Shown: one piece after another, positions 2,697-56,690 of the stretch
Layout: every line of letters starts with the position of its first letter
Numbering within the stretch: the first letter of the stretch is position 1
Assembly (NCBI GenBank): GCA_963749525.1
Contig: CAVVNC010000029.1
Span: forward strand, 140 to 64,139
Reading direction: 5' to 3'
From: an uncultured delta proteobacterium
GTDB lineage: Bacteria > Desulfobacterota > Syntrophorhabdia > Syntrophorhabdales > WCHB1-27
DNA length: 64,000 nt
Position numbers and translations under genes: made by a program
Notes under the pieces: model-generated
Told to the model about the DNA's origin: nothing
What the model saw: only the letters and a program-made list of their open reading frames with translations
Databases searched by the model: none

Positions 2697-5221
2697 ATGT
2701 CCGAACAAGTTTTTACCAATTGTACTACCGAAGGCCCAATACAGGTGTATGTCCGTGACGGCAAGGTTGTCAGGATACGGCCTCTCGTTGCCGACGAGAA
2801 GGATTTCAAGCCCTGGACCATCGAGGCCGGAGGCAGAACATATACCCCCCCGACGAAATTCCATCTCGCCCCTTTTATCCATGCGGAGAGGATACGGCTC
2901 TATTCGGAAGACCGGATCAAGTATCCCATGAAGAGAAAGGACTTCGATCCGAAGGGCAAGAGGAACCAGGAGAAGAGAGGCATATCGGGGTATGAGCGCA
3001 TAAGCTGGGACGAGGCGCTCGACATCGTCTCAGGCGAGATCAAGCGCATCAGAGAAAAGCACGGCGGCGCTGCCATAACCGGGCTCACCTCTTCCCACCA
3101 CAACTGGGGAATAGTCGGCTACAAGATGGGGCCCTTTGCCCGCTTCATGGACATGCTGGAATACACGCCCGTCTTCGATAATCCCGACAGCTGGGAAGGC
3201 TGGCACTGGGGCGCGCCTCATACCTATGGGTTCTTCTGGCGGCTCGGCATGCCGGAGCAGTACGATCTCCTCCAGGACGTGCTGAAGAACACGGAGATGA
3301 TCGTATTATGGTCGAACGACCCTGACAGCACAAGGGCCATCTATTCTGCTCAGGATGCCGTGCAGTGGCGGCAGTGGCTGAAGGAAAAGGGGGTCAAGAT
3401 GGTCGTCATCGATCCCTTCTTCAACTACACCGCCGCCCACATGGACCACGCCAAGTGGTTCCCCTTGCGGCCCGATTCCGGCGCCGCCCTGGCCCAGGCC
3501 ATCGCATACGTGTGGATCACGGAAGAGACCTACGACAAGGATTATGTAGCCAAGAGAACCGTGGGCTTCGAGGAGTTCAAGAACCACATACTGGGCAAGG
3601 ATGACGGGATACCGAAGACTCCCGAGTGGGCTTCCGAGGAGTCGGCCATTCCCGCGAGAAGGATAAGGGCCCTCGCCAGGGAATGGGCTTCCAAGAGAAC
3701 GGTCCTTTCCGGGGGCACCCGGGGCGGCGAGGGAAGCGCCTGCCGGCAGGCCTATGCGACGGAATTGGCGAGGATGATGATCCTCCTCCAGGCGATGCAG
3801 GGTCTGGGCAAGCCCGGGGTAGCTATTTGGGGTACCACCATGGGCGCCCCTTCGAATACAACCATATTCTTTCCCGGATATGCCGATCCCGATTCACGGA
3901 TGGGCATGTCGCGCGCGGCAGACAGGAAGATGGCGACCCCCACCAAGCAGCGCCTCTACCGGATCACCCTGCCGGAGGCCATACTCAATCCCCCCATAGA
4001 ATGGGATGGCGAAGGGTTCTGCGGCCAGTCCATCGAGCAGCAGTTCACCCATTACGTCTATCCCATGGAGGGGTATCCCGAGGTGAAGATGTTCTACCGC
4101 TACGGGAGCAGCTTCATCGGGACCATGGTGGACACGAGCAAGTGGGTGCGCATGTACCAGAGCCCCAAGCTCGAGTTCGTGGTGAATCAGGACTGCTGGT
4201 GGGGCGGCGAGACGGGTTTTGCCGACATCGTTCTTCCGGCATGCACGAACCTCGAACGGGAAGACATATCGGAAGCGTGGACCTCCGGCGGGTACAGCAT
4301 GCACGGATGCAGCGGGAATAACTTCAGGGTTCTCGTGCGGATGAAGAAATGCATCGAGCCTCTCTGGGAATCAAAATCCGACTACGAGATATTCACCCTG
4401 ATCTCGGATAGGCTCGGCATGAAGGATATCTACACCGAGGGCAAGACCGACGTTGACTGGGCGAAGAGAGTTCTTCGAGCATATCGGACGCTCCCAAGCT
4501 TATCACCTGGGAGGAGCTCGAGAAGAAAGGCTATTACATCATCAACCCCGAAGAGGACCACAAGCCCACCCCCGCCCTGCGCTGGTTCGCCGAGGGACGC
4601 CCCTGCGACACCCCCGACCCGATGAACAAGAAGAGGGGCACTGACAAGGGCGATGAGCTGGGCACTTACAGCGGTAAGATCGAATTCGTCTCCCAGAGCC
4701 TTCTCAAGCAGTGGCCCGACGATGATGAGCGGCCGCCGCTCCCCCACCATATTCCGAGCTGGGAGGGGTACCGGAGCGAGCTCTACAAGAAGTATCCCCT
4801 TCAGCTCATCAGCCCCCATCCCCGGTTTTCATTTCATACCCACTATGACAAGCACACGAAATGGCTCAATGAGATACCCGGCTCACAGGATCATGAAAGA
4901 CGGATACGCCTGGTGGCCTGCCCGCGTCCATCCCCGGGACGCCAGGCCAGGGGAATCAAGAACAACGACATCATCAAGCTCTACAACGACCGGGGGGCGG
5001 TCCTCTGCATTGCGGTTATCACGGAGAGGGTGCTGCCGGGCATTATCCACAGCTATGCCTCTTCTGCCAACTACGATCCTCTCGAGCCGGGCAAGGCAAA
5101 ATCGATCGACCGGGGCGGGTGCGTGAACCTCCTCACGCCGTCGCGGATGGTGTCGAGACACGCGCCGGGCATGGCGCCCAATTCATGCCTCATCGAGATA
5201 GTGAAATGGGAGGAGGAGTAG
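2697..5221 (+). pseudogene. pyrogallol hydroxytransferase (transhydroxylase) large-subunit-like molybdopterin enzyme, four frameshifts
   Basis: It matches, along its whole length, my recollection of Pelobacter acidigallici AthL. Shared features: no N-terminal Cys cluster, no Tat signal, LTSSHHNWGIVGY (the Mo-ligand Ser region), NPDSWEGWHWG, ISPHPRFSFHT, DRGGCVNLLTP. The reading frame goes 3->1->2->3->2. There are extra bases near 4465 and 4486-4487 (restoring WAREFFEHIDAPKLITWEELEKKGYY), an extra T at 4883 and a missing A near 4944 (restoring IPGHRIMKDGYAWWPARVHPRDAKARGIKNND). Confidence 0.8.
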
Positions 5222-5223
5222 AG

Positions 5224-6157
5224 ATGGCCAGATACGGCATGCTCATCAATATCGACAAGTGCAACGGCTGCTACAATTGCTTCCTTGCCTGCAGGGATGA
5301 GTTTGAAGGCAATGACTACCCCCACTATTCCGCTGCCCAGCCCGCCGAAGGCAAGTCATGGATGAAGGTAACCGAAAAGGAGCGGGGATCGGTCCCCAAG
5401 GTAAAGGTCGATTATATACCAATGCCCTGTCTCCACTGCGCGGACGCGCCGTGCGTCAACAAGTCCATTGACAAGTCCGTCTACAGGCGGCCTGACGGCA
5501 TCGTCATCATCGATCCTGAAAAAGCGAAGGGCAAGAAGGATATTCTCGTCAATTGTCCCCACCGGGTCATCTACTGGAACGAAGAAAAGAACCTGCCCCA
5601 GAAGTGTACCTTCTGCGCCCACCTCCTCGATATGGGCTGGAAGGAGCCCCGCTGCGTCGAGGCGTGCCCGGATGAGGCGCTGGTGTTCGGAGACCTTGAC
5701 GATCCGGAAAGCGAGATCTCCCGGCTCATCGCTTCTTCCCCCACAGAAGAGCTTAACCCCGCCTTCGCCCTGAAGCCCAGTGTGAGATATATTGACCTGC
5801 CCAAGAGATTCATCGCAGGCGAGGTAGCGCTCGCAGACAAGCCGGGCGAATGTGGTGCCGCCATTACCGTGCAATTGAAGAACGGCGCCGCAACAATCGA
5901 ATGCAAGACGGACAGCTTCGGGGATTTCGAGTTCGACGGGCTAAAAACCTCGGAAACGTACGTGATACGCAGCCCAAAAGGATACAAGGCTGTGGAAAGC
6001 CGTGTACTTATGAGTAAAGTGGATGATAGAAAAAAATGCGATCGCCCATAAAGGATACAGGGCTGTGGAAATGCCTGTCGTCACTTACTCCGACGTAAAC
6101 GTGGGTGTCATCGAGCTAAAGCCGTCGAAGAAGCGGCAGCCCGCGACGAAGCAGTAA
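5224..6157 (+). pseudogene. pyrogallol hydroxytransferase small (beta, 3x[4Fe-4S] + C-terminal Ig-like domain) subunit-like; 3' end disrupted by a 73-bp insertion
   Basis: ATG 5224 follows GGGAGGAGGAG. MARYGMLINIDKCNGCYNCFLAC..., PCLHCADAPC and CTFCAHLLD...CVEACP are ferredoxin-type Cys motifs, as in Pelobacter BthL. The annotated ORF stops at 6051 after ...KGYKAVESRVLMSKVDDRKKCDRP*. The homologous C-terminus KGYRAVEMPVVTYSDVNVGVIELKP...* continues in frame 2 to the TAA at 6155-6157. Confidence 0.75.
5977..6122 (+). repeat. degenerate 73-bp tandem duplication of the beta-subunit 3' coding end
   Basis: aaaggatacaRggctgtggaaa occurs at 5977-5998 and again at 6050-6071 (1 mismatch). The rest of unit 1 (5999-6049, AT-rich) aligns as a decayed copy of unit 2 (acttatgag-taaagtgg vs acttactccgacgtaaacgtgg). 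The period is 73, not a multiple of 3. Confidence 0.6.
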
Positions 6158-6230
6158 GAGAGTAAGGGGGTTGGATTAACCTCCGATGAAGAATGACGAC
6201 GAATAGAGGAGCAGAGGTAGGAGGGAGAAA

Positions 6231-8435
6231 ATGAACGGACTGAAGAGATTCTTCCATCCCGAGTCCATTGCGGTAGTCGGTGCGTCTGAGGCATTGACTT
6301 CGTATGGCACCCGCTATATTCAGGCGCTCATCGACTTCGGCTTCGAGGGAAGAAGGATCTATGCGGTCAATCACAGCGGGAACGAGGTTCTCGGTCGCAA
6401 GATATACCGCTCGGTTCTCGAGATTCCGGAGAGCGTCGATCTGGTGTGCGTTTGCGTGGGAGCCCGCTTTGTCCCTGATATTTTGCGTGATTGTCTCAAG
6501 AAGGGCGTGAAGGCAGCGATCGTCCTCTCCGCCGGATTTCGCGAGTTCGGGGAAGAGGGGCGTATTCTTGAAGAGCAAGTAGCGGAGATAGCAAGGCAGG
6601 GCATCCGGGTGATGGGACCCAACTGTTTCGGGACGTATTGCCCGGCCGGAAAGATCACGGTCGTTCCCGGTGGGGGTTTTCCGAAGCAGTCCGGGGGTAC
6701 GGCGCTCATCGCGCAGAGCGGTCAGCTGTCAGAAGGCATCACCGGACGCTCTTTTGGAGAAGGCATCAGATACTCCAAAGTGGCGAGCTACGGCAATGCT
6801 TGCAACATTAACGAGGCCGATCTCCTTGAATATCTTATGGAAGACGGAGACACCAAGGTCATCGCCTCCTATCTGGAGGGAGTGAGGGACGGTAGAAGGT
6901 TTTTCGAGATAGCCCGCGCGAATGCGGGGAGGAAGCCTCTTCTGATCTGGAAAGTCGGTCTCACCAAGTCAGGGGCGGCCGCCGCCTCTTCACACACAGG
7001 CTCCCTCGCGGGCGCAACCGCGGTGTGGGATGCCTTTTTCCGGCAGACTCGCGCAACGAGGATAGGCGGCCTTGAGGAGTTGATAGATGCGATGGTCAGT
7101 TTCTCATGTCTGCCCGAGGGCTGCGGCCTCAGGGTCGCGCTCGTGAGTGGGGGCGGCGCAGGCGCCGTGATAGGTGCGGACGCATGCGAGGCATCGGGCA
7201 TGCAAATGCCTGTGCTCGGTCCTCAGACGATTGCGCGGCTTCATGAGGTACTTCCCCCGGTCGGCACGTCTCTCAAGAATCCCCTCGACATGGGTAACCC
7301 CCATCCGCCCTTGCAGGTCTTGAGGTCCGTTCTCGAGGCAGTGGCCGCAGACGACGCCGTCGATGTCGTGCTCATAAGACGCATATTCTTTTCAATAAAG
7401 ACGAGCAAGATATTCTCCGGCACTACATCTGCCACCGAGGAAGAGCAGGAAGAGCTGCTCCGGATACCCGTTGAAGTGATGAACAAATTCAAGAAGCCCG
7501 TGGTGATCATACTGCCCGACGAGCTTACCGGTCCGGAGAATATCGATTTGGAGGAAGACAGGCGGAAGATCCGTGACTACTTCTTCGCTCACAATATCCC
7601 GGTTTATCTCTCGGAGCTGAGGGCTTTCGCAGCCCTCTCCCGCCTCGCCGCCTTCAAAACAACGCGCGTCGAAGGCGCACGAACCGCTAAAGACAGGCCG
7701 GTCGAAGCGTCGCCAAAAGGCAGGGCCGTTTTTTCGGACATCGTCGAGGCATCGTCAACGACTATCCTCGATGAGCTGCAAAGCAAGAAAGTCATGAAGG
7801 AATACGGCATCGATGTGACGGAGCCTGTTCTGGCGGAATCAAAAAAAGCCGCCGTAGCAGCCGCTGAGAAGATCGGATACCCGGTGGTGATGAAGATAGT
7901 CTCCCCGCAGATTACCCACAAAAGCGACATCGGCGGAGTACAAGTCGGCCTCGCGACCAAAGGCGCTGTCTCGAGGGGCTACTCCGAGATCATGGCAGCA
8001 GCCTCTGCCAAGGCGCCGGGCGCTTCAGTCACCGGGGTGTCCGTTCAGAAGATGGCGCCCTCCGGCCTGGAGCTTGTGATCGGGATGAACAAGGATGCGC
8101 AGTTCGGACCGGTGCTGATGTTCGGCCTCGGGGGAACGCTGGTGGAGGTCCTCAAGGATGTCACATTCAGGATCGTGCCGCTCACGGGACAGGATGCGAA
8201 AGCAATGATCAAGGAGATAAGGGCCTATCGCCTTCTTGAGGGATACCGGGGGCAGCCTGCCGTGGACATTCGCCATCTCGAGGAATTGCTGCTCAAAGTC
8301 TCCGCAATGATAGAAGATAATCCCGAAATCAAGGAGATGGACATCAACCCGCTCATTGCTTACGAAAGCGGCGCTATTGCCGTCGACGCGAGAATCATTC
8401 TGGAAGAGGATGCAGTCAGAGCGTCGGGAAAATAA
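6231..8435 (+). CDS. acetate/acyl--CoA ligase (ADP-forming), fused alpha+beta domains (CoA-binding, ligase-CoA, ATP-grasp)
   Basis: 734-aa intact ORF with RBS GGAGGGA. The N-terminus FFHPESIAVVGAS (CoA-binding) is followed by MGPNCFG and a C-terminal ATP-grasp region (KKVMKEYGIDV...YPVVMKIVSPQITHKSDIGGV). Confidence 0.85.
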   Translation: MNGLKRFFHPESIAVVGASEALTSYGTRYIQALIDFGFEGRRIYAVNHSGNEVLGRKIYRSVLEIPESVDLVCVCVGARFVPDILRDCLKKGVKAAIVLSAGFREFGEEGRILEEQVAEIARQGIRVMGPNCFGTYCPAGKITVVPGGGFPKQSGGTALIAQSGQLSEGITGRSFGEGIRYSKVASYGNACNINEADLLEYLMEDGDTKVIASYLEGVRDGRRFFEIARANAGRKPLLIWKVGLTKSGAAAASSHTGSLAGATAVWDAFFRQTRATRIGGLEELIDAMVSFSCLPEGCGLRVALVSGGGAGAVIGADACEASGMQMPVLGPQTIARLHEVLPPVGTSLKNPLDMGNPHPPLQVLRSVLEAVAADDAVDVVLIRRIFFSIKTSKIFSGTTSATEEEQEELLRIPVEVMNKFKKPVVIILPDELTGPENIDLEEDRRKIRDYFFAHNIPVYLSELRAFAALSRLAAFKTTRVEGARTAKDRPVEASPKGRAVFSDIVEASSTTILDELQSKKVMKEYGIDVTEPVLAESKKAAVAAAEKIGYPVVMKIVSPQITHKSDIGGVQVGLATKGAVSRGYSEIMAAASAKAPGASVTGVSVQKMAPSGLELVIGMNKDAQFGPVLMFGLGGTLVEVLKDVTFRIVPLTGQDAKAMIKEIRAYRLLEGYRGQPAVDIRHLEELLLKVSAMIEDNPEIKEMDINPLIAYESGAIAVDARIILEEDAVRASGK

Positions 8436-16314: not shown

Positions 16315-16917
16315 ATGCTCGATCGGCTTATGCTCGATCATTTTCTTAAATCCTTCATTCCGGTCTTTATCGCCCTCGACGTTCTCGGAGTACTTCCCCT
16401 CTACGCCGGCTTTTCCATGGACCTCGACGAGAAGAGGAAGAGGAGGGTGCTCCGGGAATCGATCATCACCGCCTTCTTCGTTGCCCTCGGCTTTGTCCTC
16501 ATAGGGAACCAGATTCTCATCTACCTCAACATAGCCATTGAGGATTTCCTCATCGCAGGGGGCGTTATCCTCTTCATCATCGCGGCGAGGGACCTCATCG
16601 GCCTGAGCCGGGAGGACCTCGCCGGTCAGGACGACCTCTTTGCCGTCGTGCCCCTCGGGGTACCGCTTCTGGCGGGGCCTGCCCTTCTCGCCACGTCCCT
16701 CATCATCTTCAATACTTTCGGCTTCGCCTATGTGCTCGTCTCCCTGGTGCTCAATCTGCTCATCGCGGGCGCGGCCTTCAAGTATTCCTTCCTCATCCTT
16801 CGCTTCGTGAGCCGGCGCTGGGTCGTGGCGATGTCGAAGGTCTTCCTGTTGCTTCTCGCGAGCATCGCGGTCATGTTCATCCGCACAGGCCTGCAAGGAT
16901 TGAGGCCGCCGCACTAG
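16315..16917 (+). CDS. MarC/UPF0056 family integral membrane protein
   Basis: 200-aa, 6-TM ORF. FIPVFIALDVLGVLPLY...IAGGVILFIIAARDL is typical of the MarC family. Confidence 0.8.
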   Translation: MLDRLMLDHFLKSFIPVFIALDVLGVLPLYAGFSMDLDEKRKRRVLRESIITAFFVALGFVLIGNQILIYLNIAIEDFLIAGGVILFIIAARDLIGLSREDLAGQDDLFAVVPLGVPLLAGPALLATSLIIFNTFGFAYVLVSLVLNLLIAGAAFKYSFLILRFVSRRWVVAMSKVFLLLLASIAVMFIRTGLQGLRPPH

Positions 16918-16924
16918 CGGCATG

Positions 16925-17254
16925 AGAAAAAGGCTTCGGGTAGACATGCAAGCCGGGACGGTGCGCATGAAGGAATCGCACCGCCCCCTGACCACTGCCC
17001 TACTGGCCTCGGATATACATCGAGTATTATCCTCGGCCAACCCGGTTCAGATTGCATCCACACCTCACGCGATCGTTTTTTCCAAGGCGGGAAAAACGAT
17101 CCTTGATCCCTCCATGCGGACCGTCCACACAATTACTGGGGCTCAGCGCCCCCTCCACAGGCAAAGCCTGCGAAGCCTCCCCCCTCAGCCTCGCTTCGCT
17201 CGTGTCGCCGGGTCTATCAGCCGACCGACCCGGCGATGAAAATGCAACATCCTA
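16925..17254 (+). repeat. interspersed intergenic repeat, copy A (modules W 16925-17004, X 17005-17120, Y 17138-17202, tail to 17254)
   Basis: It aligns by eye to 25141-25416 and, with modules permuted, to 45090-45327. Its Y module recurs twice, inverted, at 54575-54739. X contains two hairpins, at 17005-17037 and 17071-17101 (gatcgttttttcc-aaggc-gggaaaaacgatc). Confidence 0.7.
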
Positions 17255-17389
17255 GGACCAACAAAGACAAGGTGGACTTTCTTGGGGCTGCGCGGCACTG
17301 GGGGATTGATGGCACCGCCGCCCGGCAGGGAAAAGGACTCTCGTAGGTTCCTTGAGTCTTTGAACCGAAGCCGCATTTTGCCTTTCCCT

Positions 17390-17894
17390 TTACCCCCACG
17401 CTCTCCGTCCGGCGGGCATGAGAAAGAGAAGAGGAATGGAGACCACAAACGTGAGACCCAAGACGATGAAGACAATCGTGAAGCCGGAGGTGAGGTCATG
17501 GCTCACGTGAAGGATGAAGGTGACCAGCGAGATGCCGAGGGCGGCGCCGACATTCCTGAACATGTTTCTGAGCCCGACGACTGTCCCCACCTTCTCGGGC
17601 ATCAATTCTATGCAGGCGTTGTTAGAAGCGGGGAAAACCATTCCTCCGGCGATTCCGTTCACGAAGAGGAGGATTGAAAGCATTCCTACGGTCCCCATCC
17701 GGAAGCCCGAGGCACCCCACATGAGCAGTCCCGGCGCCTGCAGAATGGTCGTGATGGCGATGAAGACGAAACCGAGCACCATGGGCCAGCGGTAACCCCA
17801 TCTTCGCAGAAGGAAAGCCGTGACGGTGGCTGCTCCAGCCATCGCAACGGAGCGTGGGGTGAGAATCACTCCGCTCATCAGGGTGGAGAGCTTA
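17390..17894 (-). pseudogene. MFS transporter, C-terminal fragment (gene split by IS630 insertion)
   Basis: The TM-rich ORF ...KLSTLMSGVILTPRSVAMAGAATVTAFLL... continues the N-terminal fragment at 19022..19892 once the IS is removed. Confidence 0.75.
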
Positions 17895-17896
17895 TA

Positions 17897-18454
17897 CTAA
17901 GTTGCCATCTTAATACCACTTATGATCCAGTCGAACCCGGTGAGTCCGGCAACCTTTTCAGAGCTGCGCTCCAGTGTGGCCAGGGCTTCCATGAGCATGT
18001 CTTCCACGGCGGTAATGTTCCTAAAGACAAGATTTGGGAACCACTTTTCTCTGATCTCCTCCCAAAGGTGTTCCGCGGGATTCAGCTCAGGGCTGTAGGG
18101 AGGCAAGTTGAGTAGCCGTATGTTGGGGGGAATGACGAGAGCCCTGGCTTTGTGCCAGCCGGCCTGATCCATGAACATAAGGATCGTTTCATCGGGATGT
18201 CTTTCGGAGACGACGGAGAGGAACAGTGACATCGAGTCCGTATCGACGTCGGGAAGGATAAGAGAATCGAGCACGCCGTCAAGAGGGCTTGCCGCTCCGT
18301 AGGCATAGGTATATTCCCGGACAAGCTGGAGGGGTACTGCGGGCCTTACCCCCTTTGGCGCCCAGCAGCATCGCGGGTCACTGATCCGGCCGAAACGCGC
18401 CTCGTCCTCGAACATGATCCGTATCCTCGTACTGTCTCCGGCAGCCTCTTTCAC
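17897..18454 (-). CDS. IS630-family transposase, DDE catalytic part (orfB)
   Basis: IMFEDEARFG...FMDQAGWHK...LPPYSPELNPAEHLWEEIR is the DDE_3/IS630 signature (D...D...E region). Confidence 0.8.
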   Translation of the reverse strand: MKEAAGDSTRIRIMFEDEARFGRISDPRCCWAPKGVRPAVPLQLVREYTYAYGAASPLDGVLDSLILPDVDTDSMSLFLSVVSERHPDETILMFMDQAGWHKARALVIPPNIRLLNLPPYSPELNPAEHLWEEIREKWFPNLVFRNITAVEDMLMEALATLERSSEKVAGLTGFDWIISGIKMAT

Positions 18455-24920: not shown

Positions 24921-25140
24921 GGCAGAACCCTCCTATTCTTGAGAATCAGGAACGCCGGGCAAAGGCACTCGATCCAGCGGACGAACGGTAAAGCCTGAAA
25001 TGGCGCCCCTTAAGACCAGTGTAGCAGCATGCCGTGGCAGATTCTACAGATTTCCTCGAAGCTGCAAGCAAGGCCCAGTGTCGTGTCAGGCTTGTAAGTT
25101 CGGCCCGACGTAGCGGGGCAGGCGGAGCGATTCTTGGGCG

Positions 25141-25416
25141 GAAAGAAAAGGCTTCGGGTAGACATGCAGGTCGGGCCAACCGCATGTCCAGAATCGCACC
25201 GCCCCCTGACCGCTGCCCTACCGGCCTCGGACATACGCGAGTATTATCCTCGGCAAGCACGGCTCAGATGGCATCCACATCTCAGCTATTATTGGGGCTC
25301 AGCGCCCCCTCCGACAGCATAAGCCGCCGGAGCCTCCCCCCTCAGACTCGCTTACGCTCGTGCGTGCCGCCGGGTCTATCAGCCGACTGACCCCGGCGAT
25401 GAAAAAGCAACATCCC
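25141..25416 (+). repeat. interspersed intergenic repeat, copy B (W, partial X lacking hairpin 2, Y, tail)
   Basis: It aligns with copy A: aaaaggcttcgggtagacatgca..., atcgcaccgccccctgacc, ggcctcgga.atac, ggggctcagcgccccctcc, cgggtctatcagccgac.gaccc.ggcgatgaaaa.gcaacatcc. Confidence 0.7.
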
Positions 25417-25649
25417 AAGCATGCCCAGGAACAATCGTGCGAACGGCCTCTTCTGCCGAACAAGCTACCGGCAGCTACCGTCCGCTTACTCCAGGCCTAC
25501 TTCCTTATTTATTCCAGTCAAGAGTTTTCTTCTCAGTTTTTAGGCACCGTCGGTTTTTCGTGGTAGGCGGGGTTCCCCATCATACTGCAACATCCTACCC
25601 GACCCTTATATTTGAAAGCCGCCCTGATAGCGCTTTTACCTTGCTTAAT

Positions 25650-27340
25650 TGGGGTTAGGATGTTGACGGGGAGTCATGTATTCTGAAATGGGAGGTCGCA
25701 TACGCGCCTCAATGGAAGAAAACGATGATCCCCCCGTCTACCGTGATCATACCTTACGCAGCCTTTTTTATCATCCTCCTTTTCGGCGGGCTGTACACTC
25801 CCGCGTAATCCCTGTCATCCCTCATAATCGCGTGGATGATGCACAAGAGTTTCCTTGATACGGCGACGAGCGCCCTCATCCGCACCATGCCTCTGCCGGT
25901 AAGCCTCTCGTAGTAGTCGTGCATGATACCGTTGTTCCTGACCATAAGCACAGCGGCATAGTAGAGGATCTTTCGCATAAGGCTCCGTCCCCTTTTGGAT
26001 ATCCTCCGCTGTCCTTTTCTCTTTCCCGAGCTCACTTCATAGAGATCGAGGCCGGCAAGCTTCATGATTTCCGACTGGGTCTTGAACTTTGAGAAATCCC
26101 CCACCTCACCAATCAAACCGGCAACAGAGACGACGCCCAACCCTTTTATTGAGAGAAGTCTCATACTGCATGGTATGCGTTCCAGCGTCAGCGCCATCTC
26201 CGCTTCAATCTCGGCGATGAAGCGGTCGATGGCATCGAGTTGAGCAATGATGTGCCTTATGTCCAGGGCGACTCCCGGCACTCCTTCTTTTATACCTACT
26301 GTTCCCCGTGCAAGATTAATCAAGAGTTCCGCATCCTTTATGCCGAGCTTACCCATGCTCCGCCTGCGCATCTCTTCGCCAAACTGTCCCTTATCGAGGG
26401 TCCTTATCGTATCCGGCGTCGTATACTTGTTCAAAATCAATCGAACAGTTTTGCCCCTCATTTTCTTGATGACCTGCTTGAACTCGGGGAAAATGATGAA
26501 GACGAGTTGCTGCATTTGATTAAGCAACGCTGTTCGCTCACACACGTGTCGCTCCCTCGCGTTGTTGAGCCTTCGGAGATAGGCGGCCTCACCTTCTGGA
26601 ATGACTATCGTTAACGCACGGCCAAGCCGTATGACGTCGGCGATCACCCGGGGATCCTTGTCGTCCGTCTTGCCCGGAGAATTGTCGTTCACCTCTTTCA
26701 GCCTCTTCGTATGCATCGGGTTCACCTGGACGATCTTTACTGGCTTATCCGTGAGGTAATGAACGAGAGGCTCGGCGTAGGGGCCGGTCGATTCGTAGCC
26801 GACGATCACCTCGTCACAGTGAAACCTGGTCTTGCTCGCCGCAATGAGGCTCCAGAACTTATCGAATCCTTCCCGCGTGTTGCCGAACTTGAAGACCTTT
26901 ATATCCCTGCCATCTATAGTAGTGCAATACCCTGTATTCATGGTCATACCGATGTCGACCGTCGCAATCAGCGTGCCTTCCTTCATCGTCCTTATTCTCT
27001 TCGCCCTCAGTCCTCTCATCGTAGGTCTCCTCCACTGGATTATCAGGAATAAATGAGCTGCAATGAAGGAGGATATCCTTACTCGTTCGGATGACTCAAC
27101 CATCAACTGCAATATAGCAAGCTGAAATTCTCATCTGAAGGTTGCATCTCGCAATACTCGCTTTCCCGCGGCAATCGTGGTATAATAGATGTGGTCCGCT
27201 GGTGACTATCACCAACCAACCTACGTCCAATCAATTCTGCGTATTTCTGAAAAGCCGCACCGAGGCTCGGGGTTGTCCGCTGGTAAACCCCCTAACAAAG
27301 GACCGAGTGCCGTTGTGGGCTTGCGAACGGCCACCTCGCA
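25650..27340 (-). mobile_element. IS110-family element (boundaries not determined)
   Basis: It contains the DEDD transposase gene plus about 0.3 kb of non-coding sequence 5' of it and about 0.1-0.3 kb 3' of it. IS110 elements lack clear terminal IRs, so the ends cannot be set from one copy. Confidence 0.45.
25754..27019 (-). CDS. IS110-family (DEDD) transposase/recombinase
   Basis: Start ATG 27019 lies 7 nt after GGAGGAG. IATVDIGMTMNTG, VGYESTGPY and DDKDPRVIAD form the DEDD RuvC-like N-domain. LLSIKGLGVVSVAGLIGEVGDFSKF...ISKRGRSLMRK is the Transposase_20 C-domain. Confidence 0.85.
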   Translation of the reverse strand: MRGLRAKRIRTMKEGTLIATVDIGMTMNTGYCTTIDGRDIKVFKFGNTREGFDKFWSLIAASKTRFHCDEVIVGYESTGPYAEPLVHYLTDKPVKIVQVNPMHTKRLKEVNDNSPGKTDDKDPRVIADVIRLGRALTIVIPEGEAAYLRRLNNARERHVCERTALLNQMQQLVFIIFPEFKQVIKKMRGKTVRLILNKYTTPDTIRTLDKGQFGEEMRRRSMGKLGIKDAELLINLARGTVGIKEGVPGVALDIRHIIAQLDAIDRFIAEIEAEMALTLERIPCSMRLLSIKGLGVVSVAGLIGEVGDFSKFKTQSEIMKLAGLDLYEVSSGKRKGQRRISKRGRSLMRKILYYAAVLMVRNNGIMHDYYERLTGRGMVRMRALVAVSRKLLCIIHAIMRDDRDYAGVYSPPKRRMIKKAA

Positions 27341-37879: not shown

Positions 37880-38521
37880 CTCTCGGGTCTTTTTCCGATG
37901 CCCACACAGCCCCGCGATGAATAACGAATGCCCTCTCAAGCTTTGCGTGGGGGATGGGGGCGTGAGGGCCTAAAACGACGAGCGATGCAGTTCTGCTGGC
38001 TCGGTGAGTCACGAAGGAGGTAAAGCCGGGACCGGCACTGGTAGGGAAAAACCCTCTCGTACCTTTGTTGAGCCTCTGAACAGCTCGAATTTTCATTTGC
38101 CGAACAAGCCCGGGCGACACCACAGGCTTGAGCTGACACCGAAAGGCGCCGCCTAAAAAGAGGACGCAGATCTAGGTCGGCGGATGTTGAATCCGTCCGG
38201 ACAATTGCCCTTGACCGGGGCATCCGGGCTCCCTATACTCCTTATCATGAAGGGCAGGCCTTATCGTGGCGATGCCGTGAGCCAGCCTGATCAGAGGATA
38301 GTCCCGATGGCCGGAGCAAGGCGCGAATTCCAGGATTTTGCAAAGCCGGCCGGTCCGGTGTGCAATCTGGAGTGCCGCTATTGCTACTATCTGAAGAAGA
38401 AAGACCTCTACGAGAAGGGCGACCCGCTCCGTATGTCCGACGACATCCTGGAGGAGTACATCGTCCAGCACATCGATGCCTCGCGGGGTGAGGTGATCAG
38501 GTTTTCCTGGCACGGCGGGGA
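37880..38521 (+). repeat. direct duplicate of the anSME upstream region + first ~72 codons (copy 1; partner 43321-44022)
   Basis: 38352-38521 is identical base for base to 43853-44022 (170 bp). About 38100-38351 is similar with scattered mismatches. 37880-38100 is only loosely similar, with indels. Confidence 0.75.
38211..38239 (+). promoter_or_regulatory. candidate sigma70 promoter (TTGACC-17-TATACT) of the truncated anSME copy
   Basis: cccTTGACCggggcatccgggctcccTATACTcc. The same hexamers and spacing are conserved at 43714-43742. Confidence 0.5.
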
Positions 38522-38711
38522 AGGGATCGCCCTGAAAATCCGATGCGTCTCACATAAGGAATCTGACAATTCAATGGGCGTCTTGCCTTACTATGGCGGG
38601 AGCAATTTGATAGCCTCAGAAGCGGTGCTTACTTTTCGGGGATCAGATGCACAGGGTGCCCCCAACTCCCACCATGGGAGGGAAGTCACTGTCGCGGCAG
38701 GGCTATCATGA
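38307..38711 (+). pseudogene. truncated duplicate of the anaerobic sulfatase-maturating enzyme gene (first ~72 codons, then unrelated sequence)
   Basis: MAGARREFQDFAKPAGPVCNLECRYCYYLKKKDLYEKGDPLRMSDDILEEYIVQHIDASRGEVIRFSWHGGE is then followed by non-homologous EGIALKIRCVSHKE... up to a stop at 38711. Confidence 0.7.
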
Positions 38712-43320: not shown

Positions 43321-44022
43321 CTCTTGAGCCTTTTCCAATGCCGTTACATTCCCACGATGAGCCTTACGGGAATGGATAAGCTATTATGGGGACTCGTGTA
43401 AGCATGACGCTCCCAGCGAACAGCCGAGAAACCAAGGAAAAGGAGACGGCTCGATGATAAGCCGTCCCCTCGGATTCCGATGTGATTTCTACAGATTTGA
43501 CACAGCCGTGATGGGAATCATTACGCCAAATTGTTTTGGTGCAACAGTACGAGAGACCTCTTCGGTGAGTAAAGCAACCGGTTAGAACCGCCCGCCTTTT
43601 GATCACGCAAGCCCGGGCGTCATTGCAAGCTTGAGATGACACCGGAAGGCGCCTCCTAAAAAGAGAACGCAGATCTAGGTCGGCGGATGTTGAATCCGGC
43701 CGGACAATTGCCCTTGACCGGCGCATCCGACCTCCCTATACTCCTTATCATGAAGGCCTGCCTTATCGTGTCGATGCCGGGGCCGGCCTGATCAGAGGAT
43801 AGTTCCCATGGCCAGAGCGACCCGCGAATTCCAGGTTTTTGCAAAGCCGGCAGGTCCGGTGTGCAATCTGGAGTGCCGCTATTGCTACTATCTGAAGAAG
43901 AAAGACCTCTACGAGAAGGGCGACCCGCTCCGTATGTCCGACGACATCCTGGAGGAGTACATCGTCCAGCACATCGATGCCTCGCGGGGTGAGGTGATCA
44001 GGTTTTCCTGGCACGGCGGGGA
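43321..44022 (+). repeat. direct duplicate, copy 2 (upstream region and 5' end of the intact anSME gene)
   Basis: See 37880-38521. The offset of the identical part is 5,501 bp. Confidence 0.75.
43714..43742 (+). promoter_or_regulatory. candidate sigma70 promoter of the anSME gene (TTGACC-17-TATACT)
   Basis: cccTTGACCggcgcatccgacctcccTATACTcc, 66 nt upstream of ATG 43808. It is conserved in the duplicate. Confidence 0.55.
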
Positions 44023-45064
44023 GCCGACCGTCCTCGGGCTCGACTGCTTTCGGAAAATCGTGGCGCTCCAGCGCAAGTACCGGCCTGAAGGCAAGCGCAT
44101 CGCCAACGGCATTCAAACGAACGGCACCCTTCTCGACGAGGAGTGGTGCCGTTTTCTCGCGGTGGAAGGTTTTACCGTAGGGATCAGTCTGGACGGCCCG
44201 AAGGAGATGCACGACCAATACCGCGTGGGCAAGAGGGAGACCCCAACTCACGAACAGGCAATGCGCGGATACAGGCTCCTTCGCGACCATGGAGTCCCCT
44301 GCGATGTGCTCTGCGTGGTCCACGCGGGAAATGTGCGATATCCCGTCGAGGTATACCGGTTCTTCAGGGAGATAGGGGCCGCCTACGTTGGATTCCTGCC
44401 TCTGGTCGAGCATTCGCCGGACAGGCGGACCGGAAGCGACCTCACCGTGCCCCCTGAGGCCTTCGGCGATTTCCTCTGCACTGTCTTCGACGAGTGGCTG
44501 AGCGGGGACGTCGGGCGCATCAACGTGCAGATATTCGAGGAGGCTATTGCAACGGCCTTCGGGCGGGAACACGGGCTCTGCATCTTTCGGGAGACCTGCG
44601 GCGACATCCCCGTGGTAGAGCATAACGGCGACTTCTTTTCGTGCGATCACTTTGTCGACGGGGAGCATTGCCTCGGGAATATCAGGGAGACTCCTCTCAC
44701 CCGATTGCTGGACAGCCCGGCGCAGAGGGAATTCGGACAGGTCAAAGCGGACAGGCTGCCCCGTTTCTGCAAGACCTGCGAGGTCCTCTCCATGTGCAAC
44801 GGAGGCTGTCCGAAGGATCGCTTCCTTTGCACACCGGACGGCGAGGAAGGCCTCAACTATCTGTGCGCCGGATATAAGCGCTTCTTCACCCATTGCCGCC
44901 CCTTCGTCGCCCAGGTGGCGGCCCTGTCGCGGGTGCAGAATATGGAAGGCGAAATGACATCGGCGCGCGTAGGGACCGCGGGAGGCGGCGCCAAGACGGG
45001 CCGCAACGATCCGTGCCCGTGCGGCAGCGGTAAGAAGTACAAGAAATGCTGCATGCCCAAGTGA
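43808..45064 (+). CDS. anaerobic sulfatase-maturating enzyme-like radical SAM/SPASM protein with C-terminal SEC-C motif
   Basis: CNLECRYCYY (CxxxCxxC) plus SPASM-type Cys clusters (CGDIPVVEHNGDFFSCDH, CKTCEVLSMCNGGCPKDR). The C-terminal NDPCPCGSGKKYKKCC is a SEC-C zinc motif. Confidence 0.85.
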   Translation: MARATREFQVFAKPAGPVCNLECRYCYYLKKKDLYEKGDPLRMSDDILEEYIVQHIDASRGEVIRFSWHGGEPTVLGLDCFRKIVALQRKYRPEGKRIANGIQTNGTLLDEEWCRFLAVEGFTVGISLDGPKEMHDQYRVGKRETPTHEQAMRGYRLLRDHGVPCDVLCVVHAGNVRYPVEVYRFFREIGAAYVGFLPLVEHSPDRRTGSDLTVPPEAFGDFLCTVFDEWLSGDVGRINVQIFEEAIATAFGREHGLCIFRETCGDIPVVEHNGDFFSCDHFVDGEHCLGNIRETPLTRLLDSPAQREFGQVKADRLPRFCKTCEVLSMCNGGCPKDRFLCTPDGEEGLNYLCAGYKRFFTHCRPFVAQVAALSRVQNMEGEMTSARVGTAGGGAKTGRNDPCPCGSGKKYKKCCMPK

Positions 45065-45089
45065 TCGGCTCACCGCGTTTATGTCGGAT

Positions 45090-45327
45090 CGGCCGACCGC
45101 ATGGAGAAATCGCGAGCAATTAATGGGGCTCAGCGCCCCCTCCGGCAGCATAAGCCGCCGGAGTCTCCCCCCTCATCCTCGCTTGCGCTCGGTTCGCGCC
45201 CTCTTCACCACGTGGCCGCAGATATACGAAAAGTATCATCTTCGGCCGACGTGGTTCAGATTGCATCCAAACCTCACGCGATCGTTTTTTCCAAGACGGG
45301 AAAAACGATCCTTGATCCCTCCATGCG
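45090..45327 (+). repeat. interspersed intergenic repeat, copy C (partial W, then Y 45125-45200, then X 45214-45327: module order permuted relative to copy A)
   Basis: ggggctcagcgccccctccggcagcataagccgccggag.ctcccccctca matches Y of copy B. ggccgcagatatacgaaaagtatcatcttcggcc...ggttcagattgcatccaaacctcacgcgatcgttttttccaagacgggaaaaacgatccttgatccctccatgcg matches X of copy A. Confidence 0.65.
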
Positions 45328-45340
45328 CTCATCCATCCGT

Positions 45341-45377
45341 GCCGGGGGTATCAGCTTACGCTGCTGATACCCCCGGC
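45341..45377. other. perfect 15-bp inverted repeat/hairpin between convergent genes
   Basis: gccgggggtatcagc-ttacgct-gctgatacccccggc. There is no U-tract on either strand. Confidence 0.6.
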
Positions 45378-45727
45378 AGGTACAGAAGAATGCATGTATG
45401 ATCCCGGGGTATAGGCTCCGGGGAAGCTCTTGTCATCTCGGCCCGTGCGTGGGCCAAGATGACAAGAGGCAACATCATGTTTCGGCATATAGGAGGCGCT
45501 GCCTTGTCTCCATGAGATAGCTCCCCTATCAGTTCCTCGGCGTATGGTTCCTCAATGAGCGGATCATCGTGGAGGCTCCGGGGACCCGTCAGCGGAAAGG
45601 CGAGCGGTGCCGGAGCACGGGCGACTGACGGCCGGGCTATGCGGTCATGGTAGGGCGTTCCCGGATTCACTCCTTGGGGAGCCAAAGCCCTTCTCGGCCG
45701 ACCAATGCGCGTCTGACGTAATACGTT

Positions 45728-46573
45728 CTATGTCTTAAGCTTTTCCTTGAAAAAGTCTATGGTTCGCTTCCACGCGAGGTCGGCGGCTTGCTTGTTGTAC
45801 CTGGCGAGGTTCGTATCGTTGTTGAAAGCGTGCTGGGCGCCTTCGTACATGTAGAGCCTGTAATCGACCGAGGCTGCTTTTAGCGCCTCGACGTATGCCG
45901 GGATGCCCGGGTTGATCATCTCATCGATGCCTGCGTAATGGAGAAGCAGAGACGCCTTTATCTTGGGGACATCCGCGGACGCGGGCTGCCTCCCGTAGTA
46001 CGGGACCGCTGCCGATATATCGGGTGAGTTAACGGCGAGCTGGTTTGCCATGCCTCCGCCCCAGCAGAAGCCTACGACGCCGACCTTCCCGGTAGACATG
46101 GGATGGCTCTTCAAATACTGAACCGCTGCAATGAAATTCTTTATCGTCGATTGCTGGTCCAGTTCGCTAATCAGGGCTATCGCCTTGTCCTCGTCTTTCG
46201 GGGTCCCCCCGACAGGAGAGAGGGCATCAGGGGCCAGCGCCAGAAAACCCTCCAGGGCTACGCGTCTCGCGACATCCGCGATGTGTGCGTTGAGGCCCCG
46301 ATTCTCGTGGATGACGAGAACGCCGGGGAGTCTCGCATCTCCTTTGGGCCTCGCGAGCTTGCCGCGCACTTCCCCTGTGGCGCCTTGAAATGTGATGTCC
46401 TCCGTGTAGAGGCGGGGATCGTCCTTCGGAACCAGGTCTGCCCTCGCGTATCCCTTCTCCAATGAGACGAGAAGAGCGTTCGCCGCTACGGTTCCTCCCA
46501 TGAGAACGGATAGCCGTTTCAGGAATTCGCGGCGATCCAGGGACCCGCGACTATGCTCGTCGTAGAGGTTCAT
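45728..46573 (-). CDS. dienelactone hydrolase family protein with Tat signal
   Basis: ATG 46573 follows GGAGGGA (the ORF is open further upstream). SLDRREFLKRLSVLMGGTVAANA is Tat-like. VLVIHENRGLNAHI...VGVVGFCWGG...H fits the DLH catalytic pattern. Confidence 0.8.
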   Translation of the reverse strand: MNLYDEHSRGSLDRREFLKRLSVLMGGTVAANALLVSLEKGYARADLVPKDDPRLYTEDITFQGATGEVRGKLARPKGDARLPGVLVIHENRGLNAHIADVARRVALEGFLALAPDALSPVGGTPKDEDKAIALISELDQQSTIKNFIAAVQYLKSHPMSTGKVGVVGFCWGGGMANQLAVNSPDISAAVPYYGRQPASADVPKIKASLLLHYAGIDEMINPGIPAYVEALKAASVDYRLYMYEGAQHAFNNDTNLARYNKQAADLAWKRTIDFFKEKLKT

Positions 46574-49826: not shown

Positions 49827-49856
49827 CCCGCTCCTTAAGATGCGCTATGCTGAAGT

Positions 49857-49885
49857 ATTGTAAATCATTAGGGGGCGCGGGGCAA
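49857..49885 (-). promoter_or_regulatory. candidate sigma70 promoter of the ccsA-like/hemA/hemC operon (TTGCCC-17-TACAAT)
   Basis: Minus strand: cTTGCCCcgcgccccctaatgattTACAATac, about 30 nt upstream of the AAGGAG-ATG of the ccsA-like gene. Confidence 0.45.
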
Positions 49886-50004
49886 GATTAGGAACAAACC
49901 AGGGCTAGCCGATCCTGCGATAGGCCTAGTGCCATGGCAAGCTTGTAGTGTCGTCTAAAGCCGGCCGGACCTGCACGTCGACCCCAAGCCTTTTCTTCCC
50001 GACG

Positions 50005-54574: not shown

Positions 54575-54739
54575 CCACAAAACCGAGCGAAGCGAGGCTT
54601 AAGCGGGCAGGCCGGGGCACCCCGAAGCGGGTCGTGAGCCTTGCCTGTGGAGGGGGTGCTGAACCAGGACAAAACGAGCGTAAGCGAGACTGAGCGGGGA
54701 GGCTCCGCAGCTTTGCCTGTGGAGGGGGTGCTGAACCCC
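54575..54739 (-). repeat. two tandem inverted copies of repeat module Y
   Basis: Reverse complement: ggggttcagcaccccctccacaggcaaagctgcggagcctccccgctcagtctcgcttacgctcg, then tggttcagcaccccctccacaggcaag...gcctcgcttcgctcg. The second copy carries an insertion of about 30 nt. Confidence 0.65.
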
Positions 54740-54783
54740 AACGACTGTCCTTAGCCTCTGAGCTTCCTGCTGCGAGAAGATAG

Positions 54784-56683: not shown

Positions 56684-56690
56684 GTCCGCG

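Follow-up and report, generated by a model that had tools for sequence, protein, structure and literature searches.

Our analysis of the intergenic DNA downstream of marC in the window (the whole 64-kb stretch of DNA analysed here) indicates that this region is probably a mosaic of nested, non-coding and non-autonomous palindromic repeats of the REP/BIME-BOX-MITE kind, built from at least two independent elements, a scaffold and a unit called Y. The repeat set is real, apparently undescribed, and at home, one module inside another, in the intergenic gaps of peat-dwelling Syntrophus-like bacteria; its kind is already well known from the REP/BIME, BOX and MITE elements, of which these sequences are a new example, and the Y module has unusually clear signs of single-strand folding. 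An initial annotation of this DNA described a single W-X-Y family of modular, hairpin-rich intergenic repeats with compensatory changes at four loci. All four loci are present at the positions given (17004–17118 of copy A, for example, is 89% identical to 45213–45327 of copy C), the modular hairpin-rich repeat and its compensatory changes are real, and the repetition is not due to chance; a covariance model (CM) of Y built without copy A finds the Y unit of copy A at 17130–17188 on the minus strand with 79.8 bits (E 5e-21). The single family does not survive, since W and X are the two halves of one inverted-repeat scaffold, and Y is an independent element with a broader host range that occurs at several insertion points in the scaffold. 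The inventory of modules is also wider than W, X and Y, and includes a Z module, a P palindrome, distal modules and two mini-palindromes.

The scaffold is about 175–200 nt long and is closed into a rod by a terminal inverted repeat of about 22–28 nt, whose 5' arm GGACGGTSCGCATGAAGGAATC pairs with the 3' arm GATCCCTCCATGCGGACCGTCC; Y has no such terminal repeat. Conserved sequence extends beyond the scaffold's inverted repeat. Folded as a consensus, 11 scaffold copies give 55 pairs, and compensatory changes occur at 11 of these. In hairpin 1 of X the G-C to A-T change pointed out initially is a true compensatory change, and three pairs of this hairpin each show 2–4 double changes among the 11 copies. 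Hairpin 2 of X, originally given as a 13-bp stem, has 12 Watson-Crick pairs, and the remaining pair is U.G; it is present 0, 1, 2 or at least 4 times per scaffold, and in loci L108, L127 and L128 it is tandemly repeated with a 36–39-nt period. Scaffolds were found in at least 20 distinct contexts in peat metagenomes, where the adjoining genes are unrelated housekeeping genes. The scaffold has the same sense as the upstream gene in 17 of 22 contexts, mostly within 80 nt of that gene's stop codon (placement was by nhmmer for the metagenome loci, where gene calls came from a crude ORF scorer, and by hand for the window copies). Because it usually lies right after a stop codon and is sense to the upstream gene, the scaffold is presumably co-transcribed as a 3' UTR.

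Scaffold copy A (16925–17125, plus strand) begins 8 nt past the marC stop codon; its 5' arm GGACGGTGCGCATGAAGGAATC pairs with its 3' arm GATCCCTCCATGCGGACCGTC, its inner hairpins lie at about 17004–17037 (hairpin 1) and at 17071–17101 (hairpin 2), and as RNA it folds with −73.2 kcal/mol (z −3.3). Its Y unit follows the 3' arm directly (17130–17205; nhmmer 17134–17205) with rcY, the Y strand that bears the folding signal, on the minus strand; the scaffolds of L114 and L129 have no Y at this insertion point. Copy A had been taken to end at 17254, but modules common to other loci continue to about 17366 and nearly fill the spacer between marC and the MFS gene. These are the Z module (17206–17256, plus), in which a hairpin GCCGGGTC...GACCCGGC is followed by GATGAAAATGCAAC and which is 92–96% identical to 25365–25415 of the window and to L129, L114, L122 and L132, and the distal modules (17263–17366, plus), of which 17263–17310 matches at least 10 metagenome loci and 17308–17366 matches L131, L114, L111, L119 and L125, at 76–88%. 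Scaffold copy B (25101–25285, plus), as aligned with L132 and copy A, consists of an upstream extension, W and X hairpin 1, and lacks hairpin 2 and the 3' arm; it is followed by a Y unit (25286–25362, rcY on the minus strand) that is sense with both flanking minus-strand genes, and by a Z module (25363–25418, plus) recognised by sequence matches. The pieces of copies A and B are 87–93% alike, and the Y heads of A, B and C 93–96%. Copy C had been read as Y followed by X; its order is in fact the 5' part of W (45078–45116, plus), which begins 14 nt past the stop codon of a radical-SAM/SPASM/SEC-C gene, a Y unit inside W (45117–45195, rcY on the minus strand, also found by nhmmer), and then the 3' part of W, X hairpins 1 and 2 and the 3' arm (45196–45335, plus). 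The junction at which Y follows W...aatcgcgagc in copy C is also found in L107, L108 and L113. Next to copy C lies the P palindrome (45336–45400, plus; GCCGGGGGTATCAGC..GCTGATACCCCCGGC and a conserved tail), which is 78–89% identical to L124, L109, L111 and L121; its stems there are different yet complementary, and its loop in L111 holds a Y.

The fourth locus contains two tandem Y units, both with rcY on the plus strand: D1 (54580–54665; nhmmer E 1.2e-7), a long form into which an additional GC-rich hairpin is inserted, and which is sense between two plus-strand genes, and D2 (54671–54747), a short form 37 nt upstream of the start of a CNNM-family gene. The Y units of copies B, C and D2 score 77.8, 76.0 and 68.5 bits with the CM, scores in a range (68–78 bits) that follows by construction, these copies being in its training set. 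Three further pieces were recognised in the window. A degenerate Y (852–910, rcY on the plus strand; CM 28.9 bits, E 2e-6) ends 8 nt before the Shine-Dalgarno (SD) sequence AAGGAG of the next gene; a lone 5' fragment of W (49961–50001, minus) is 87% complementary to 25139–25177, and the orthologous spacer in L057 has a Y in place of this fragment; and a fragment of a far-distal scaffold-associated module (37919–38065, plus) is 77–80% identical over 117–150 nt to L126 and L114.

Y is an independent unit of 60–75 nt made of two abutting hairpins, flanked by the conserved tracts GGGGAGG and AAUAAUUG. The first hairpin has a 10-bp stem with a CUCC/GGAG closure and an interior that covaries freely; the second is the conserved GGGGY-GCUGA-RCCCC. 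In the Y alignment 96.8% of cells are paired, compared with 86.7% in shuffled alignments and 39–60% in slid controls. Double-sided changes occur at 8 of the 15 pairs, and there are 126 compensatory cells, against 42 in the shuffles, none of which (0 of 500) reaches 126. At the fifth pair of the conserved hairpin, where the search pattern permitted all four combinations, 93 copies have C-G, 47 have U-A and 8 have a mismatch. The initial annotation had written Y on the strand opposite to that with the folding signal; G.U pairs number 37 on rcY and 6 on the other strand, and of 78 hairpins compared by fold energy, 46 favour rcY and 5 the other strand. The Y hairpins are maintained by compensatory change, and G.U pairs are tolerated on one strand only. 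The unpaired nucleotides (GGGGAGG, the GCUGA loop and AAUAAUUG) are nearly invariant over species whose coding DNA is only 73–80% identical, which is unexpected of a purely selfish, decaying repeat and points to a specific protein partner or function.

Y units adjoin unrelated genes in 13 species-level MAGs (labelled Syntrophaceae, Syntrophorhabdales or "delta proteobacterium") and in the window, with 158 units in 112 arrays, a host range far broader than that of the scaffold; the matches to the Y pattern in other taxa carry the 19-mer alone (12 of 12). Y occurs singly or in tandem arrays of 2–5 near-identical units, and all 30 multi-unit arrays are same-strand and head-to-tail. On viral contigs the Y head was found in only 3 stretches; one of these, L134, carries 3 full units and is probably host or prophage DNA. 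As a separate observation, 200-nt inverted copies that contain Y bracket a 2.4-kb insert in L083, in which we found no transposase, only a weak RelA/SpoT-like ORF.

The rcY strand is usually the mRNA-sense strand: of 55 codirectional spacers, 44 have it in the sense orientation, as do 19 of the 23 spacers whose flanking genes run against the regional majority. Replication strand is unsupported as the cause of this bias, with the regional gene majority as a weak proxy for it (in 8-kb pieces, GC skew is confounded with the orientation of the genes). The conserved Y hairpin stands 5–13 nt upstream of a real SD in at least 10 loci, and one Y has inserted into a 4-nt coupled stop/start junction and left both genes intact, with a new SD beside the element. 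The 4:1 orientation bias and the frequent hairpin upstream of an SD are as compatible with a functional RNA as with tolerance. It is worth weighing whether rcY is a host-selected, cis-acting RNA "punctuation" of operon spacers, whose repetitiveness is secondary, and which directs processing in its AU-rich AAUAAUUG linker, shields the newly made 3' and 5' ends, or recruits ribosomes by way of the SD-like GGGGAGG/GGAGGGGG; 5' stabilisers such as STAB-SD are the natural comparison. The strand-specific tolerance of G.U pairs, the orientation that follows the immediate flanking genes against the regional majority (19 versus 4), the hairpins close to real SDs, the invariance of the unpaired positions in 13 species and the insertion at the stop/start junction, with both genes left intact, all argue for such a role. 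On the other hand, Y is present or absent among close relatives and varies in unit number within species, neither of which is expected of a needed signal; the units of an array are identical copies, their flanking genes are functionally unrelated, 20% of the operon copies and every scaffold-internal Y examined have the opposite orientation, and the G.U bias is found in copies that are not sense-oriented as well. We regard this host-selected role as possible but rather doubtful.

The mosaic that we favour is supported by the nesting of the modules. Y has inserted at no fewer than 4 different points of the scaffold as well as in operon spacers, and all of the scaffold-internal Y copies examined lie as rcY against the scaffold strand. 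A 45-nt palindrome sits within the loop of X hairpin 1, and a 22-nt palindrome is found within Y in both orientations (11 versus 7 cases). Orthologous sites with and without Y were found in three comparisons (L105 versus L030/L076, L018 versus L100, and L044 versus L075), and no consistent target-site direct repeat is present at these three filled/empty sites or at scaffold ends; the L076 site has a possible 8-nt direct repeat, which the same site in L030 lacks. The hairpin reported missing from copy B is indeed absent, and a rearrangement at Y copies accounts for it: the locus in another assembly (L132), whose flanks are 99% identical, has two Y units with a remnant of the X end between them, so that the loss is explained by a deletion between two Y copies, and the single Y of copy B is probably what recombination between two such units left behind. 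In another strain the copy-A scaffold is truncated. These data show that Y spreads to new sites, among them the apical parts or loops of other modules and operon spacers that are very short; that its arrays grow and shrink locally on the same strand; and that Y is a substrate of homologous recombination by which DNA is deleted or rearranged between strains.

How Y might move is suggested by some of the same observations. A hairpin-recognising enzyme could move Y, and perhaps the scaffold, in the form of single-stranded DNA. It might be an HUH tyrosine transposase of the REP/RAYT or IS200/IS605 type or some other enzyme that acts on single-stranded loops, and such mobilisation would account for a folding signal on one strand, a conserved flank beside a hairpin, the lack of target duplications and the insertions into hairpin loops. 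The G.U (G.T in DNA) asymmetry is intrinsic to Y, as it is seen in all context classes, including the few copies with antisense rcY, so that its source may be a single-stranded intermediate of mobilisation and not an mRNA function. The filled/empty sites without target-site duplication and the repeated insertions into apical parts of other palindromes fit as well, and the conserved octamer abuts the conserved short hairpin in a way formally like GTAG and REP. A tblastn search with E. coli RayT of the window and all loci (about 1.1 Mb around the repeats), however, found nothing better than E 3.1. Beside the Y hairpins stand GGAG/CTCC and AATAATTG, and no conserved GT[AG]G; REPIN-like inverted doublets are absent from the 30 multi-unit arrays, which are strictly direct; and orientation tracks local transcription, not the regional gene majority that stands, weakly, for replication direction. 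Single-strand mobilisation of this sort is in our judgement unlikely.

An association with IS110 or IS630 insertion sites, which the initial annotation had proposed to check, was seen at few loci. An IS110-family transposase gene (25754–27019, minus) lies 340 nt from copy B, and a second, distant IS110-like pseudogene adjoins a scaffold in L130; the one IS630 found near the repeats, in L132, has terminal inverted repeats (TTATTAATCAGTCCAAAATAGTATAGACAT) unrelated to any module. IS110-family elements insert into REP-like palindromes, and the repeats might be mainly landing pads for the neighbouring element or derived from it, as bridge-RNA targets or fragments of its non-coding end. Such a gene accompanies just 2 of the roughly 27 scaffold loci and 0 of 104 genome loci with the Y pattern, the two cases differ in relative orientation, none of the modules occurs at both ends of the IS, no Rfam family matches, and the repeats are vastly more numerous than the IS, all of which makes this origin very unlikely. 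The narrower reading as an IS110 non-coding end or bridge RNA was rejected, copy B being antisense to the transposase and nearly all copies having no transposase. Among the transposases near repeats (IS110-family members without terminal inverted repeats, and the IS630) there is no cognate autonomous IS with matching ends.

Since the modules form stable hairpins, the scaffold lies at the 3' ends of genes and another GC hairpin sometimes follows, they might also be thought to be independent small-RNA genes, or ordinary intrinsic terminators that are alike by chance. Consensus scans found no sigma-70-like promoter in or beside copies A and C and no stem-plus-T-run terminator there (0 sites in 16800–17500 and 45000–45750), and what follows the conserved hairpins is CUCC or AAUAAUUG and never a U tract. 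Moreover, rcY lies within operon spacers without separating the genes, and tandem identical units and nesting are not typical of small-RNA genes, so that of all the readings considered this one seems to us the most improbable. A tRNA or tmRNA origin is likewise not indicated, as ARAGORN found 0 such genes in the window. Rfam 15 gave 0 matches at the gathering threshold for the window, a Y array and 20 metagenome scaffold loci, and at E≤10 only chance matches far below threshold (MIR531, whose 22.5 bits compare with a threshold of 70, and asX3, CC3513 and fiv_FSE). Plasmid records gave no match, and a literature search on Syntrophus/Syntrophaceae repeats found nothing relevant. A CRISPR reading of the arrays of about 70 nt was rejected because the whole period (64–118 nt) repeats near-identically, "spacer" included; attC/integron and MIRU-like readings were rejected by eye, as inspection showed no GTTRRRY core and period lengths that do not divide by 3.

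The initial statement that this is not a known REP/BIME, MITE or RNA family holds for sequence membership; it does not hold for the kind of element, which is the same class and is closest to the modular BOX elements and BIMEs (PMC3049150). Like BOX of Streptococcus pneumoniae and S. suis (boxA-boxB(n)-boxC), the repeats are composite, modular and intergenic, their outer modules pair while an inner module folds alone, and the number of tandem modules varies (here W pairs with the end of X, X hairpin 2 is repeated, and Y arrays reach 5 units); mutual insertion, length variation between strains, co-transcription and the lack of a proven transposase are further parallels (PMC3049150). Unlike BOX, to which they have no sequence similarity, the elements and their host are GC-rich, there are at least 6 module types, and Y has a far wider host range than the scaffold and a marked strand and orientation bias. 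With the REP/BIME elements of enterobacteria and pseudomonads, which have RAYT, they share short, GC-rich, imperfect palindromes, mosaics in transcribed spacers and a conserved short flank beside a hairpin, but they have no GTAG-type motif, their arrays are direct and not alternating or inverted, no RAYT gene was found near the copies, and Y is a fixed pair of two different hairpins. REPs are known to affect mRNA stability, and translation near stop codons (PMC3049150), and ERIC elements have orientation-dependent effects (PMC3049150). The scaffold in turn resembles the MITE-like elements Correia/NEMIS, ERIC and RUP in its length of 175–200 nt, terminal inverted repeat, rod-like fold and co-transcription, and differs from them in that it has no target-site duplication, is not AT-rich and has no IS with matching ends. 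Finally, the multicopy intergenic sequences of Geobacter and Pelobacter are likewise numerous palindromic families of unassigned role, some of them shared across species, in related "deltaproteobacterial" lineages, and the consensus motifs quoted in the text of that paper (for example GRCGTAGCGCTGCTACGCC and the GGACCGG heptamers) are unlike Y or the scaffold (PMC2700814).

In the reading that we prefer, scaffold and Y would be essentially selfish repeats that are co-transcribed with the neighbouring genes. They would be retained where the cell tolerates their transcribed form or gains slightly from it as a stable hairpin block between cistrons, through protection from exonucleases, an AU-rich cleavage site or SD-like tracts. 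In operons, selection may act against Y turned the other way, since two CCUCC anti-SD tracts would then be exposed. No transposase, IS-matching terminal repeat or target-site duplication was found, and we therefore infer mobility from distribution alone. A more far-reaching possibility, to which we give little weight, is that Y is a clade-wide structured nucleic-acid element with a dedicated, putative partner. This could be a factor that binds or cleaves RNA and uses the two-hairpin rcY (with its invariant GGGGAGG, GCUGA loop and AAUAAUUG) to punctuate polycistronic mRNAs in Syntrophales-like bacteria, or a new hairpin-loop-targeting mobilisation by way of a single-stranded rcY intermediate; the latter, if true, would also account for the nested insertions and for the small palindrome in either orientation. 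If a dedicated protein partner exists, Y would lead to a new system of RNA processing or single-strand mobilisation in a poorly studied lineage.

Whatever their origin, the repeats have practical consequences. In operon spacers and 3' UTRs they may change gene expression, and they produce strain-level deletions and rearrangements. Y in particular is an unusually clean data set on the spread of small palindromic repeats and on their tolerance in one orientation, with 13 species, many compensatory changes, G.U pairs tolerated on one strand and an orientation bias that tracks local transcription. The Y model (R1) and the scaffold consensus would allow annotators to mask or label these sequences. 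The repeats also break short-read assemblies of abundant peat and soil syntrophs; the short marC contigs stop inside the repeat or just past it.

The similarities that the initial annotation reported at four loci hold up on reading of the loci and in an all-window repeat search, in which 17004-17118 matches 45213-45327 at 89% and several blocks of 30–77 nt (79–96% alike) are common to the copies at 16925, 25141 and 45090 (copies A, B and C). The fourth locus contains two Y units, D1 and D2 (54580-54665 and 54671-54747), minus-strand in that annotation's Y sense, and a W fragment (49961-50001) and a degenerate Y (852-910) also came out of the search. Chance similarity is excluded, because a covariance model whose training left out copy A finds copy A at 79.8 bits. 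As stated earlier, every window copy is intergenic, and the flanking ORFs are well supported by Pfam. Copy A has marC on one side and a split MFS gene on the other; copy B lies between genes for a molybdopterin oxidoreductase and for a transposase of the IS110 family; copy C is flanked by a radical-SAM/SPASM/SEC-C gene and a dienelactone hydrolase, and D1 and D2 by a BcrAD/HgdC-like gene of 1388 aa and a CNNM/CorC gene. The 64-kb window has no Rfam family at the gathering threshold, in agreement with the initial annotation, and no tRNA gene that might point to a tRNA origin of the modules. The MFS gene is two adjacent minus-strand ORFs (17390-17878 and 17897-18454) and may be a pseudogene. A weak match to the Y covariance model at 55350-55412 (plus strand, 22.2 bits, E 1.6e-4) lies within the CNNM/CorC coding sequence and is probably due to chance.

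W and X, described previously as separate modules, are one scaffold. The 25 stretches that X hairpin 2 retrieved as a metagenome query are all of peat or soil origin, and they align as a conserved unit, ...GAAGAAAAGGCTTCGGGTAGACATGCAGGTCC-GGACGGTCCGCATGAAGGAATCGCG...hairpin 1...hairpin 2...GATCCCTCCATGCGGACCGTCC. In the structure that RNAalifold predicts for 11 uninterrupted copies the W half pairs with the end of X, and 11 of the 55 pairs have compensatory changes (for example CGCATG/CATGCG to GCCTGG/CCAGGC in one metagenome locus, L109); the compensatory change noticed earlier in X hairpin 1 is real. Copy A takes the same fold (-73.2 kcal/mol, z -3.3). By hand count from the pair table, scaffold G.U and A.C mismatches are balanced, save for an invariant U.G in hairpin 2; the scaffold thus lacks a one-strand signal and resembles a terminal-inverted-repeat element. 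Of 22 distinct contexts (those in the window assessed by hand), 17 have the 5' end of the scaffold after a gene that runs the same way, usually <80 nt from the stop codon, and the adjoining genes are unrelated (ferritin, GntR, FtsJ, LarA, HAD, ABC permease, GTPase, glycosyltransferase and others). Further shared modules lie 3' of the scaffold, namely a Z hairpin, a CCGGAATTG hairpin, a P palindrome and distal blocks, and the modules of copy A extend to about 17366.

Y is an independent, widespread element, and the proposal of a single W-X-Y family fails, since the Y loci listed are essentially without the remaining modules. A scan with the 19-nt Y head over one genome per GTDB species found at least 104 stretches, and a profile search of those listed found at least 153 full units. 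Among the matches listed, full units are confined to 13 MAG species, the window's own genome not among them, labelled Syntrophus, Syntrophaceae, Syntrophorhabdales or "delta proteobacterium", and 12 matches in other phyla are to the 19-mer alone. The closest of these listed loci are 73–77% identical to the window in coding DNA; short metagenome contigs of the window's own species stop inside or just past the repeat. In the matches listed Y is single in at least 82 cases and forms arrays of 2–5 units in at least 30, always one-strand and head-to-tail, with near-identical units and periods of 64–118 nt. Three viral-collection contigs carry the Y head, and one of them full units. That contig, L134 (IMGVR_UViG_3300035696_000278), classified as viral, has three (3465-3518, 6137-6191 and 6324-6377), two of which face opposite ways with about 130 nt between them; the contig could be a prophage, or else a piece of host DNA from a Y-bearing bacterium.

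The modules nest in one another. Y lies inside W in copy C, L107 and L108, past the scaffold 3' arm in copy A, L116, L118, L123, L127 and others, in place of hairpin 2 in copy B and L132, after Z in L122, and in the P loop in L111. Given these differing positions, the "Y before X" order of copy C is an insertion and not a permutation. A 45-nt palindrome tops X hairpin 1 in L117-L119, L126 and L131, and hairpin 2 is tandemly repeated in L108, L127 and L128. The hairpin reported missing from copy B is indeed absent. L132, from another assembly of the same species (99% identical), has at this locus two Y units around a remnant of the X 3' arm; the window has a single Y and no remnant, the arrangement expected if the two Y units had recombined, which would explain the missing hairpin. 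In a 96%-identical strain (L001) copy A is represented by the 5' part of the scaffold only, after which the sequence diverges; the DNA there seems to open a plus-strand gene. The outer modules pair, the inner module varies in tandem number, and the elements insert into one another, differ between strains and are presumably co-transcribed. This architecture matches that of small interspersed mosaic repeats, a known class in which we therefore place the repeats. Of that class the modular BOX elements come closest (PMC3049150), and related Geobacter genomes are rich in multicopy intergenic sequences (PMC2700814).

The initial annotation wrote Y on one strand, and it is the opposite strand (rcY) that carries the folding signal. 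Its layout is (tail)-UGAGSGGGGAGG - CUCC-N(6)-UUU-N(6)-GGAG - GGGGY-GCUGA-RCCCC - AAUAAUUG. When 69 distinct cores are aligned with plain MAFFT, 96.8% of cells in this two-hairpin structure are paired, against 86.7% in shuffles and 39–60% with partners slid; 8 of 15 pairs have both-sided changes, and compensatory cells number 126 versus 42 in shuffles (0 of 500 reach 126), figures that do not count independent events, as the copies share descent. At the closing pair of the small hairpin, where the search pattern permitted all four combinations, 93 copies have C-G, 47 have U-A and 8 a mismatch, and the interior of the 10-bp stem has at least five different complementary sequences. Mismatches are one-sided: five pair positions together have 37 G.U pairs on rcY against 6 on the other strand, and 46 of 78 distinct hairpins fold better as rcY, 5 as the opposite strand. 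The asymmetry is seen in every gene-context class and is therefore a property of the element, not of local mutation pressure. Such a signal could also arise if Y were mobilised via a single-stranded intermediate, as it may be. Many Y units (for example in L032, L040, L050 and L066, and at window 54600-54640) have part of the 3' side of the long hairpin replaced by a palindrome, CGGGGCACCCGCTTGCGGGTCG, which is GC-rich, about 22 nt long and seen in both orientations (11 and 7 cases); a longer variant has the core CCCTTCCCTCCTTACGTCGGGC.

Y orientation follows the genes around it. Genes were called by a simple scoring of ORFs on codon usage. In the matches listed, 44 of 55 arrays between codirectional genes have rcY as the sense strand, as do all three such window copies (B, D and 852). 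Where, in these matches, the flanking genes oppose the majority of other genes in the 8-kb locus, rcY is sense in 19 cases versus 4, so the bias tracks local transcription and not regional (replication-like) polarity. Where rcY is sense, the end of the conserved hairpin often lies 5–13 nt upstream of the next gene's Shine-Dalgarno sequence, and Y may have a true cis-RNA function. Consensus scans around copies A and C (16800-17500 and 45000-45750) show neither a sigma-70 promoter nor a stem-plus-U-run terminator. Conservation of Y over 13 species, a one-strand folding signal and a transcription-linked orientation bias go beyond ordinary mosaic repeats, and the data favour selection on the transcribed form of Y (tolerance) over both cis-RNA function and single-stranded mobilisation.

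Y sites are filled in some relatives and empty in others. In L105 just 4 nt, and no Y, separate a stop codon from the start that follows it; the orthologous junction in L030 and L076 has one to one-and-a-half units with rcY sense. In orthologous comparisons L100 has two Y units where L018 is empty, and L075 about 320 nt of modules where L044 is empty; these filled and empty sites show no consistent target-site duplication. At the orthologous spacer upstream of a cytochrome-c assembly gene the modules differ by species: L057 (2240-2450) has a long-form Y, a GC hairpin and a TATAAT-like box, and the window (49827-50004) a W fragment only. In L083 (2712-5484) a 2.4-kb insert, possibly an accessory cassette captured between repeats, is bounded by a pair of inverted repeats of about 200 nt, each made up of Y and a genome-specific extension (83–91% complementary). 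Within the insert are a 39-nt tandem repeat in three copies and small ORFs, one of which has a weak likeness to RelA/SpoT.

No carrier of mobility was found in comparisons with RayT, IS110, IS630, plasmids and viral collections: about 1.1 Mb of repeat-bearing DNA has no relative of E. coli RayT, and plasmid records gave no match. On the association with IS110/IS630 insertion sites that the initial annotation proposed to check, only copy B and one scaffold (L130) have an IS110-family gene beside them, and the ends of the IS630 in L132 are unrelated. The IS110-family transposase beside copy B (25754-27127, minus strand) is present in identical form at this locus in L132. Past 27127 nothing is shared, L132 having the IS630 (DDE_3) gene and a DUF4379 gene, which puts a strain-specific breakpoint at, or close to, one end of the IS.

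Two other repeats are present in the window. A 44-nt unit, GCGTCACGGGCCTTCTTCGAAGACGCCCATGGCCCTGAATTGCA, occurs in three tandem copies (100%, 100% and 95%) at 56688-56819, directly after ORF 56273-56683; it is small, intergenic and unrelated to W, X or Y. Blocks at 38105-38533 and 43608-44034, 5.5 kb apart and 91–94% identical, are a duplication of the 5' part of a radical-SAM gene together with the region upstream of it; in the first block the gene copy (ORF 38184-38711) looks truncated.
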